DNA of 64,000 nucleotides from Escherichia coli (GCF_045037415.1 NZ_CP173438.1); one strand, 5' to 3'; shown: positions 2,202 to 21,396, counted from the first letter of the stretch. Notes: generated by a model from the sequence alone, not told the origin. Program-made: numbers and translations.

Positions 2202-2608
2202 TATGGAAACGAAAAATCACCCTGGAAGCACTGAATGCTATGGGGGAAGGAAACATGGTGGGGTTGCTGGATATTCGCTTTGAACATATTGGTGATGACA
2301 CCCTTGAAGCGACAATGCCAGTAGACTCGCGGACAAAGCAGCCTTTCGGGTTGCTGCATGGAGGTGCATCCGTGGTACTGGCCGAAAGTATCGGTTCCGT
2401 TGCCGGTTATTTATGTACCGAGGGTGAGCAAAAAGTGGTTGGTCTGGAAATCAATGCTAACCACGTCCGCTCAGTACGAGAAGGGCGGGTGCGCGGCGTA
2501 TGTAAACCGTTGCATCTCGGTTCGCGTCACCAGGTCTGGCAGATTGAAATCTTCGATGAGAAAGGGCGTTTGTGCTGTTCGTCACGATTGACGACCGCTA
2601 TTTTGTGA
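2198..2608 (+). CDS. menI: 1,4-dihydroxy-2-naphthoyl-CoA hydrolase (hotdog-fold thioesterase)
   Basis: 136-aa ORF matching recalled MenI/YdiI sequence ([18 protein letters not shown]...); overlaps ydiJ stop by 4 nt. Confidence 0.93.
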
Positions 2609-2707
2609 CGTTGTCACCAGAAAAGTGTGACGCATATTGCTTTTGGTTATTATCTGCACAGTAAACGGTGGTATACTGTGCAGGTCTTGTCTAAAAGCGA
2701 GGATGCT

Positions 2708-2896
2708 ATGTCTACTCAACTTGATCCCACCCAACTGGCCATTGAATTTTTACGCCGTGACCAAAGCAATCTTTCACCTGCCCAATATCTCAAGCGTCTG
2801 AAACAATTAGAACTTGAATTTGCTGACCTGCTTACTCTCTCTTCTGCTGAATTAAAAGAAGAAATCTATTTCGCCTGGCGTCTGGGCGTGCATTGA
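2708..2896 (+). CDS. ydiH: small protein YdiH (62 aa)
   Basis: Internal ATG of ORF 2627..2896 gives MSTQLDPTQLAIEFLRRDQ..., matching K-12 YdiH; the upstream in-frame extension is not part of the gene. Confidence 0.8.
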   Translation: MSTQLDPTQLAIEFLRRDQSNLSPAQYLKRLKQLELEFADLLTLSSAELKEEIYFAWRLGVH

Positions 2897-3096
2897 TCCT
2901 GATTTAATGTCGCGAGTTCGCCAAATCGGCCTGGATTAATCTTCGTCCAGGTTCGAGGGCCTTCTTAATACTGCCTATCTACCCGCCTGATAACGTTCAA
3001 AAATAATACAAATCGCAGTTTGTGTTAAAACAGTGGGTTAGCTTTATGAGATTATCCTTATCGCCCCTTCAAGAGCTAAGCCACTGTGAGTGCCGG

Positions 3097-3163
3097 AGAT
3101 AAGCGCCGGATGGGGTAGAAACCCTTAAGCCTGTGTCGCACAGACTTAAGGGTTTTCTTATTT
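3097..3163 (+). ncRNA. rydB: candidate small RNA RydB (coordinates approximate)
   Basis: K-12 encodes the ~68-nt sRNA RydB between ydiH and sufA; a strong intrinsic terminator hairpin ends here at ~3164. The 5' end is not determined from sequence. Confidence 0.4.
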
Positions 3164-3164
3164 C
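3121..3164 (+). terminator. rho-independent terminator (nested GC stem acccttaag...cttaagggt followed by tttcttattt)
   Basis: Inverted repeat with T-rich tail read directly from the sequence. Confidence 0.6.
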
Positions 3165-3385
3165 TGAACGCTGCACTTTTTTACCTATCCCTTAAATAGT
3201 CATTTTCAATGCAACTTTTTCTTTTTCATCACAGCCTTAATGCTCCTTAGATAATAATCATTATCTAACAATGAGATACCTAATTCTTAGCGTGCCTGTT
3301 AACCCACAAATCAGGGTCTATGCTTATTAAAAGCAGGTAAAAAGCATGTTTTACGCTAAAGCCCCTGCGTTTGCTGGGTTGAACT

Positions 3386-3404
3386 GATAATCATTATCAC
3401 TAAC
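3386..3404 (+). promoter_or_regulatory. Fur box in the sufA promoter
   Basis: gataatcattatcactaa is a near-consensus Fur operator (GATAATGATAATCATTATC), about 40-60 bp upstream of the sufA ATG; the suf operon is known to be Fur-repressed. Confidence 0.7.
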
Positions 3405-3444
3405 ATGCTGTTATACGCTGAAAGCGATGAAGTGAGGTAAATCG

Positions 3445-3813
3445 ATGGACATGCATTCAGGAACCTTTAATCCACAGGATTTCGCCTGGCAAGGCTTAAC
3501 GCTGACACCCGCAGCGGCGATACACATCCGCGAACTGGTGGCAAAGCAGCCGGGTATGATCGGCGTGCGCTTAGGCGTGAAGCAAACGGGCTGCGCGGGC
3601 TTTGGCTATGTGCTCGACAGTGTTAGCGAGCCGGACAAAGACGATCTGCTGTTTGAACACGACGGCGCGAAGCTGTTTGTCCCGCTGCAAGCGATGCCTT
3701 TTATTGATGGCACGGAAGTCGATTTCGTTCGTGAAGGACTTAATCAGATATTCAAATTTCACAACCCTAAAGCCCAGAATGAATGTGGCTGTGGCGAAAG
3801 CTTTGGGGTATAG
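3445..3813 (+). CDS. sufA: Fe-S cluster assembly A-type carrier SufA
   Basis: 122 aa with C-terminal CGCGESF motif; first gene of sufABCDSE. Confidence 0.95.
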
Positions 3814-12897: not shown

Positions 12898-13137
12898 CCA
12901 TTCAGGATGAGGCGGTAAGCTTCATCCTGATATTGTTAGTTCAGTTGCGGTCCAGTTAATCATTCTAAATAACAACTGCTGAAATTATACGAATTTCGGT
13001 GTATATTTTAATTTATAGCGATAAAGTTATTTTTATTTTCTGCGATGAATTTCACAAATAATTGTCGGTTAAGTTAAATTTATTTCAAATGATAATAAAT
13101 ATCACTTCACTTATAATTTCTTGCTTTGTGATTTTAA

Positions 13138-20824: not shown

Positions 20825-21130
20825 TCAGGCAAGTTTTGCCTGATTGATTTGACTCAGTGGCACATTGACATCGAAAACTTTGGCGACAACTTCCTCAACG
20901 CCGAGATTTTTCAGTCGGGCAGTATGTTTTTCCAGATAGGCAAGGGCGCTTTTTTCATCAGTGAAAAGGTAGATCCCACCGGCTTCGTGGTTCTTTTCAC
21001 TTTCTGTCCAAACCTTCCACAGAAAACCAGGTTCCTGATTAATCGACTCAGCAAGCGGTTTAAGCTGCTCAGCCATTGTGTCGCCAAATGGGCCATTGAA
21101 AGAAAAATGAAGTTGTAACAAAGTTGCCAT
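20825..21130 (-). CDS. ydhR: putative monooxygenase YdhR (dimeric alpha/beta barrel)
   Basis: 101 aa matching recalled YdhR. Confidence 0.88.
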
Positions 21131-21238
21131 AGCGATTCTCCTTCTGATAACGCATACGAAGACAGTGTAAATCTTTTAACGTATTGGATACAGAGAAGAA
21201 ACAGAGGGAAAAAAGGAGAAGACCAGATTAAGAAAATC

Positions 21239-21315
21239 TGGTGCGTCCGAGTGGACTCGAACCACCGACCCCCACCATGTCAAGGTGGTGCTCTAACCAA
21301 CTGAGCTACGGACGC
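21239..21315 (-). tRNA. valV: tRNA-Val (anticodon GAC)
   Basis: Reverse complement reads GCGTCCGTAGCTCAGTTGGTTAGAGCACCACCTTGACATGGTGGGGGTCGGTGGTTCGAGTCCACTCGGACGCACCA; cloverleaf with encoded CCA. Confidence 0.95.
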
Positions 21316-21319
21316 AGGA

Positions 21320-21396
21320 TGGTGCGTTCAATTGGACTCGAACCAACGACCCCCACCATGTCAAGGTGGTGCTCTAACCAACTGAGCTATGAACGC
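21320..21396 (-). tRNA. valW: tRNA-Val (anticodon GAC), second copy
   Basis: Reverse complement reads GCGTTCATAGCTCAGTTGGTTAGAGCACCACCTTGACATGG...CCAATTGAACGCACCA; 4-nt spacer from the first copy. Confidence 0.95.

Follow-up and report, generated by a model that had tools for sequence, protein, structure and literature searches.

What does the 548-bp spacer between ydiH and sufA of Escherichia coli encode, and where does the small RNA transcribed from it end? The window analysed here, a 64-kb stretch of E. coli DNA reversed in orientation relative to K-12 numbering, carries this spacer at positions 2897-3444, with ydiH ending at 2896 and sufA starting at 3445. A first-pass annotation, made from the sequence alone, had placed in it a terminated unit of sRNA size, attributed to RydB, followed by a Fur operator in front of sufA. 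The spacer holds two adjacent features, namely rydB with its hairpin and the iron-repressed suf promoter. Both are already known: the annotation of rydB dates from 2001, and control of suf by Fur is textbook knowledge. The sole correction to this picture concerns the accumulating RydB RNA, which ends at 3123, at the start of the hairpin, rather than at 3164.

Genomic context of the spacer

The spacer is 100% identical to that of many E. coli chromosomes, is found in 5421 of 5426 complete E. coli genomes and, over its whole length, is 98% identical to its K-12 counterpart by pairwise alignment. Upstream of it lie ydiJ, menI and ydiH, while sufA and sufB (from 3822) follow downstream. The first gene of sufABCDSE, sufA, occupies 3445-3813 on the plus strand (ORF list and RefSeq annotation) and is preceded by a GAGG Shine-Dalgarno sequence at 3434-3437. 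The ydiH coding sequence (2708-2896, plus strand, 62 aa), placed by the RefSeq annotation of a spacer-identical strain and of K-12, is context only and lies outside the rydB unit. Upstream of ydiH, a consensus scan returned a promoter-like TTGTCA-16-CATATT at 2611-2638, and the same hexamers have been reported by genomic SELEX.

In K-12, rydB (RydB; tpe7, IS082; RF00118; b4430) is annotated at 1764713-1764780 on the minus strand, between ydiH and sufA and on the strand of both. Mapped through the pairwise alignment, this annotation corresponds to 3051-3118 on the plus strand of the window; the gene is the same in position and strand, with no biological difference. The curated K-12 record (L001) carries a rydB feature, and the RefSeq/PGAP annotation of strain SA186 (L002), whose spacer is identical to that of the window, has none, even though the unannotated SA186 sequence exceeds the Rfam gathering score. 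Neither the rydB terminator nor the sufA promoter was picked up by our own consensus scanner for promoters and terminators, which was not relied on.

Comparative statements below refer to 80 enterobacterial sufA loci, or to an alignment (A2) of 27 sequences.

Identity and 3' end of RydB

A covariance-model search matched RF00118 (rydB) to 3063-3123 on the plus strand, across model positions 1-61 of 61, at 83 bits (E = 3.5e-18) relative to a curated gathering score of 50 bits, and returned no other Rfam match at E ≤ 0.1 within 2600-3700. This full-length match, a check which the first-pass annotation had itself suggested, upholds the identification as RydB together with the 98% alignment to K-12. 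A single substitution separates the window from K-12 across 3063-3164.

The same annotation had located the hairpin at RydB and anticipated a transcript ending near 3164. The former holds insofar as the hairpin adjoins the annotated RydB (3051-3118), but it does not lie within it. The latter disagrees with published data and fails the refuting condition which the first-pass annotation had set for itself, a lack of transcripts ending near 3164: Term-seq (Adams 2021, eLife, PMC7815308) lists a single rydB 3' end, K-12 1764708 on the minus strand, in all three growth conditions, and no end near 3164. K-12 1764708 is position 3123 of the window, the printed flank placing the end after ...GGGGTAGAAACC. 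Reads at this end number 2,174,030 in LB at OD 0.4 and 4,136,120 at OD 2.0; among the approximately 75 entries in the first part of the table, only a tRNA 3' end and one internal to gluQ exceed it (PMC7815308). The region of the U tract, K-12 17646xx, has no listed 3' end in the tables for the three conditions (PMC7815308). Fast processing, or a curation threshold applied beside a peak of millions of reads, could account for the missing U-tract end.

Position 3123 lies 8 nt past the RydB closing stem, which ends at 3115, and 5-6 nt into the 5' arm of the hairpin. It is precisely where the Rfam model ends and, with a 5' end at 3063, gives an RNA of 61 nt. The original 2001 description of rydB reportedly gave a Northern size of about 60 nt. 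As the Term-seq end falls at 3123, the terminated unit can represent no more than a precursor, of about 100 nt; the stable RNA, of about 61 nt, lacks the terminator. We therefore place the accumulating form of RydB at 3063-3123 on the plus strand, on the basis of the RF00118 match, the Term-seq 3' end and a purine at 3063. The K-12 annotation (3051-3118), the Rfam span (3063-3123) and the Term-seq end (3123) differ from one another by 5-12 nt, and none of them takes in the terminator hairpin. In Salmonella, rydB has been tabulated as 105 nt (Sittka et al. 2008), which is about the length of core plus hairpin. This span may be predicted rather than mapped, the class to which it was assigned being that of sRNAs conserved from E. 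coli.

The RydB core is nearly invariant in the 27-sequence alignment, its near-invariant interior comprising CCUUCAAGAGCUAAGCCA and GAGUGCCGGAGAUAAGCGCCGGAUGG. Compensatory changes, with substitutions on both sides, occur in two of the four pairs of the closing stem; the two inner hairpins show no variation in these sequences and are hence uninformative for covariation. The core folds no more stably than shuffled sequence (z = -0.08 to +1.0). A minimum-energy pairing between GGAGAUAAG (3096-3104) and CUUAUUUCU (3158-3166) was dismissed as chance, its downstream partner not being conserved in Citrobacter or Salmonella. When duplex energies with RydB were scanned over the whole window on both strands, no outlier appeared near suf or ydiH.

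The hairpin and U tract

A hairpin and U-rich tail at 3118-3164 on the plus strand, judged from folding energy and covariation, make up a predicted intrinsic terminator for rydB. The hairpin proper (3118-3157) has 17 pairs interrupted by one C.A mismatch and a folding energy of -21.4 kcal/mol (z = -6.25, with none of 200 shuffles folding as well), and its tail, UUUUCUUAUUUC, reaches 3164. The complementary strand can also fold but has no U tract, which makes the element in E. coli a directional one. The C.A mismatch splits the stem, which explains why a simple consensus scanner overlooked it.

Among the 27 enterobacterial sequences, both sides have changed in 12 of the 17 pairs, and the paired cells amount to 96%; when partner columns were slid, pairing reached at most 56% for the whole tested structure. 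A hairpin follows the RydB core in 26 of the 26 sequences matched by a purpose-built covariance model (R1). A stable hairpin and U tract on the transcribed strand, maintained by compensatory substitutions, support the earlier proposal of a strong intrinsic terminator ending at 3164. The hairpin, which the accumulating RNA lacks, is best read as a terminator of rydB or as an insulator ahead of the region that controls suf.

In four species, an unrelated and longer hairpin (-26 to -42 kcal/mol) replaces the E. coli type: C. koseri, two other Citrobacter species and Pseudenterobacter timonensis (L015:3567-3619, L024:3535-3587, L025:3537-3589 and L028:3276-3325). Three of these four have a poor U tract, and they are the three with this trait among the 26 distinct rydB-bearing species sampled. 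A REP-like origin of the CCGGAGATAAGCGCCGG hairpin was also considered; the window holds no second copy of it and no match to a REP arm.

Upstream elements of rydB

Five positions upstream of the RydB core (T3047, G3048, G3050, A3051 and T3055) are invariant in the 27 sequences, which span six genera. They correspond to a TG motif and to positions 2 and 6 of a -10 hexamer, in the pattern TGnGAnnAT, and position 3063, 8 nt after the hexamer, is a purine in 27 of 27. These conserved columns point to a promoter of the extended -10 type, with TGaGATTAT at 3047-3055 on the plus strand as its putative -10 region and 3063 as the probable 5' end, 12 nt after the start of the K-12 annotation. An alternative overlapping hexamer, TATGAG, was rejected, its TA being lost in two Citrobacter species. 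Cappable-seq supplements contain no entry near the rydB locus.

Further upstream, alignment A2 reveals an element of invariant or nearly invariant columns, GCAnTTTGTGTTAAAA, at 3015-3030 on the plus strand, followed by 17-20 nt that vary. It could represent a half-site for an activator or, if the spacer is a long one, a -35-like TTAAAA. On the minus strand, a promoter-like TTAACA-17-TATTTT at 3000-3028 overlaps TTTGTGTTAAAA, the conserved element that precedes rydB, and an inverted repeat occurs in the same place (3004-3027). This minus-strand site could be a divergent promoter antisense to ydiH, or an A/T-rich, UP-like region of the rydB promoter.

Distribution and changing neighbours of rydB

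BLAST, nhmmer and the covariance model built here agree on the same 25 of the 80 sufA loci as bearers of rydB. These loci belong to Escherichia, most Citrobacter, Salmonella, two Leclercia, Silvania confinis and Pseudenterobacter; the three methods found no rydB in the remaining 55, among them loci of Enterobacter, Klebsiella and Kluyvera. The surroundings of the gene vary. In most Citrobacter loci (eight or more), approximately 2 kb with two genes, encoding a secreted protein on the minus strand and a LysR-type regulator, lie between ydiH and rydB (L008:1685-3537, with equivalents in L015, L017 and L024). On the other side, Salmonella, C. braakii and two further Citrobacter loci carry genes that part rydB from sufA, and one Citrobacter locus has insertions on both sides of rydB. 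The rydB-sufA insert of C. braakii carries Hcp-like (type VI secretion) genes and that of Salmonella a gene for a 448-aa membrane protein; the insertions in the rydB neighbourhood include those at L022:2073-3276 and L019:2228-3574. The neighbourhood of rydB is an insertion hot spot.

In Silvania confinis and in Leclercia adecarboxylata (L069, one of the two rydB-bearing Leclercia loci), ydiH is absent and rydB follows menI. The upstream motifs, core and hairpin of rydB stay together in all of these changed contexts. Since the module travels intact, an origin of RydB in the ydiH 3' UTR is ruled out and rydB is an autonomous module.

The suf control region and its Fur box

Conservation across the 80 sufA loci begins at about 3183, some 20 nt after the U tract of rydB. 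The first conserved block (3183-3215, plus strand; CCTATC..TAAATAG..) has the 80-locus consensus CTAT-N7-ATAG-N7-CTAT and, judged by sequence, is a likely distal OxyR site. The full 37-bp OxyR consensus finds no match at ≤3 mismatches, its central CTAT-N7-ATAG alone being present. A conserved AT-rich block at 3255-3275 (plus strand) emerges from the 80-locus profile with the consensus TATCAATGCATTG; this fits the IHF motif WATCAAnnnnTTR, and the block is a likely IHF site. The highly conserved block AGGGTCTATGCTTATTAAAAG (3313-3333, plus strand) is a candidate NsrR operator, with a loose resemblance to the NsrR motif. Majority-base agreement is at least 90% over most columns of 3313-3326 in the 80 loci, and the block as a whole is among the best conserved stretches upstream of suf and is not explained by the factors placed here.

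The putative core promoter of sufA lies at 3379-3406 on the plus strand, with a -35 of TTGAAC (3379-3384), a 16-bp spacer and a -10 of TAACAT (3401-3406), and would start transcription near 3413. Its GGGTTGAA and CTAACATG are conserved in the 80 loci, and its hexamers total 8/12, which is under the threshold of the scanner. Over the -35, an IscR type-2 site was placed by motif match at 3358-3383 (plus strand), with 0 mismatches to AWARCCCYTSNGTTTGMNGKKKTKWA and 0.02 matches expected by chance at ≤3 mismatches; the consensus derives in part from the sufA promoter itself, which makes this a weak test.

Between the two hexamers, the Fur box essentially fills the spacer. It is a perfect 7-1-7 inverted repeat, TGATAATcATTATCA, at 3385-3399 on the plus strand, where TGATAATCATTATCA agrees at 15 of 15 positions with the 7-1-7 Fur motif TGATAATnATTATCA and at 16 of 19 with the 19-bp consensus GATAATGATAATCATTATC. 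No perfect 7-1-7 match arose in 100 shuffles of the 64-kb window, and at ≤2 mismatches the window contains three matches, with 0.19 expected. The box is present with at most two substitutions in 79 of the 80 sufA loci; in 76 it lies 60-63 nt before the ATG, and in the three others 49-50 nt before a start that is approximate (the SufA match begins at residue 7). The near-perfect Fur operator previously noted before sufA is thus confirmed, at 15/15, with the amendment that the 19-nt string quoted for it spans 3385-3403 and not 3385-3404. Its position inside the promoter spacer suggests a simple mechanism, the exclusion of RNA polymerase.

Might this sequence instead be a chance AT-rich palindrome devoid of regulatory role? 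AT-rich promoter regions often resemble Fur boxes, and a weaker look-alike does occur at 3252-3266. We regard the idea as scarcely credible given that the perfect 15/15 match never arose in shuffles, that position and sequence are fixed in 79 of 80 loci from many genera, and that Fur repression of suf is experimentally established in the literature. Reviews describe repression of suf by holo-Fur, activation by apo-IscR through a type-2 site within the sufA -35, action of OxyR from a far-upstream site with a requirement for IHF, and repression by NsrR; recent experiments confirm the control by Fur, IscR and OxyR. The review literature is in agreement with the Fur/IscR/OxyR control that had been invoked for this spacer, with IHF to be added, and the core promoter of sufA is where the Fur box is found.

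The arrangement is that of the known E. coli sufABCDSE promoter (Fur, apo-IscR, OxyR with IHF, NsrR), with which it shares the Fur box in the spacer, the IscR type-2 site over the -35 and the distal blocks. The only difference found is in the upstream Fur-like/IHF block, where the window has T and K-12 has C at 3258, further weakening the Fur match in K-12. The Fur-like sequence itself, TAATAATCATTATCT (3252-3266), has 2 mismatches, precedes the true box by about 130 nt and overlaps the IHF-like block. Also in the IHF region, about 160 nt upstream of the Fur-box promoter, is a promoter-like ATCACA-16-GATAAT (3228-3255, 9/12), and genomic SELEX has proposed these hexamers as a constitutive sufA promoter.

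A model for the locus and its alternatives

We consider it highly probable (approximately 0.85) that the spacer operates as two adjacent, independent and known modules: the rydB gene at about 3015-3164 and the sufABCDSE control region at about 3183-3444. A sigma-70 extended -10 promoter (3047-3055) would start rydB transcription near G3063, and the first 61 nt would make up the RydB core, in which a closing stem of 4-5 bp surrounds the nearly invariant interior. RNA polymerase would then meet the hairpin and U tract (3118-3164), predicted to end a primary transcript of about 100 nt. As an insulator, the hairpin may keep heavy rydB transcription out of the OxyR, IHF, IscR and Fur architecture downstream. 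Its most likely fate is post-transcriptional removal: an endonuclease would cut the transcript, and 3'-to-5' trimming would then proceed until the structure of the core stalls it. RNase E does not typically cut within stable stems. A mature RydB without the hairpin and U tail of Hfq-type sRNAs would fit the reported Hfq independence. At sufA, iron-bound Fur on the box that fills the spacer would block RNA polymerase.

Several other accounts of the RydB 3' end and of its origin have to be weighed against this model. Were the functional sRNA the whole terminated unit, as in classical sRNAs, a stable RNA would run from the rydB promoter to the U tract near 3164. The strength and conservation of the hairpin and U tract favor such an RNA, as do the 105-nt Salmonella annotation and the listing of rydB in RepRanger with 'RIT', which we read as Rho-independent terminator. 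We nevertheless think it improbable: E. coli Term-seq gives the 3123 end only, with millions of reads, in three conditions and nothing at 17646xx; the 61-nt Rfam model ends exactly at 3123; the Northern size is said to be about 60 nt; and the Salmonella coordinates are possibly predicted, not mapped. We attach a similarly low probability to the formation of the 3123 end during transcription, through a hairpin-dependent pause or a non-canonical release, with the downstream hairpin left as a back-up terminator or insulator. The 8 nt between the end of the stem (3115) and 3123 do have the geometry of hairpin-dependent termination, and the missing U-tract end would be accounted for. These 8 nt, however, read UAGAAACC and contain no run of U that could weaken the hybrid, the stem that closes the core amounts to 4-5 bp around a multiloop, and exonuclease stalling predicts an identical geometry.

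A further possibility, that RydB is a fragment of the ydiH 3' UTR and the hairpin the terminator of a ydiH (or ydiJ-menI-ydiH) transcript, draws on the common strand of rydB and ydiH and on the lack of a convincing terminator between them, the site at 2940-2959 being weak and without a good U tract. It is very improbable in view of the at least eight Citrobacter loci in which some 2 kb and two genes, one on the opposite strand, part ydiH from a rydB that keeps its upstream motifs, of the retention of rydB without ydiH in Leclercia adecarboxylata and Silvania confinis, and of an extended -10 motif conserved in every context. A classification of RydB as a 3' UTR-derived sRNA of ydiH was rejected on the grounds that the separated or ydiH-less loci keep rydB together with its promoter motif.

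Within the model of two independent modules, the hairpin might be conserved mainly as a removable element for maturation and insulation, a precursor of about 100 nt giving rise quickly to a very abundant, terminator-less 61-nt RNA whose near-invariant interior would act via a protein partner rather than by Hfq-assisted pairing. We advance this only tentatively, as a rather unlikely elaboration. The retention of a hairpin, in longer form, in the three species with a poor U tract is consistent with it, as is the lack of a U-tract end in E. coli.

RydB among small RNAs

Like the Hfq-dependent sRNAs RyhB and SgrS, rydB forms a short, independent transcription unit: it has its own promoter, and a hairpin and U tract come after it. 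It differs from them in that the accumulating RNA lacks the hairpin and U tail, is classed as Hfq-independent and has no known seed-target pair. An assignment of RydB to the Hfq-dependent base-pairing sRNAs was set aside on account of its mature end at 3123, which precedes the hairpin, and of its Hfq-independent listing. The literature groups RydB with Hfq-independent sRNAs; in a Salmonella Hfq co-immunoprecipitation it was enriched 2.5-fold, a ratio resting on 4 versus 10 reads. In other published work, RydB in multicopy has been reported to affect rpoS, arrays have recorded RydB responses to paraquat, ppGpp and cAMP, and a preprint describes phenotypes in persistence.

Other features of the window

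Away from the ydiH-sufA spacer, a near-perfect Fur-type box with one mismatch, TGATAATAAATATCA, occurs at 13090-13104 within another, AT-rich spacer. By K-12 coordinates this second spacer separates fumD (ydhZ) from ydhY, and the ydhY ferredoxin-like operon lies downstream of the box. Rfam matches elsewhere in the window include STnc550 at 29989-30379 (387 bits) and, within 21114-21396, two tRNA genes on the minus strand (21242-21396). An 'HPnc0260 antisense RNA' match overlaps the tRNA region and probably reflects the complement of a tRNA only.

Implications

The practical value of these results lies in annotation. An abundant RNA ends inside its own terminator hairpin, a circumstance that matters for the design of deletions and probes and for target predictions. 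A deletion of rydB falls about 20 nt from the distal OxyR-like block of suf; because of this proximity, published phenotypes of rydB mutants, such as peroxide sensitivity, could reflect altered suf regulation or lost insulation.
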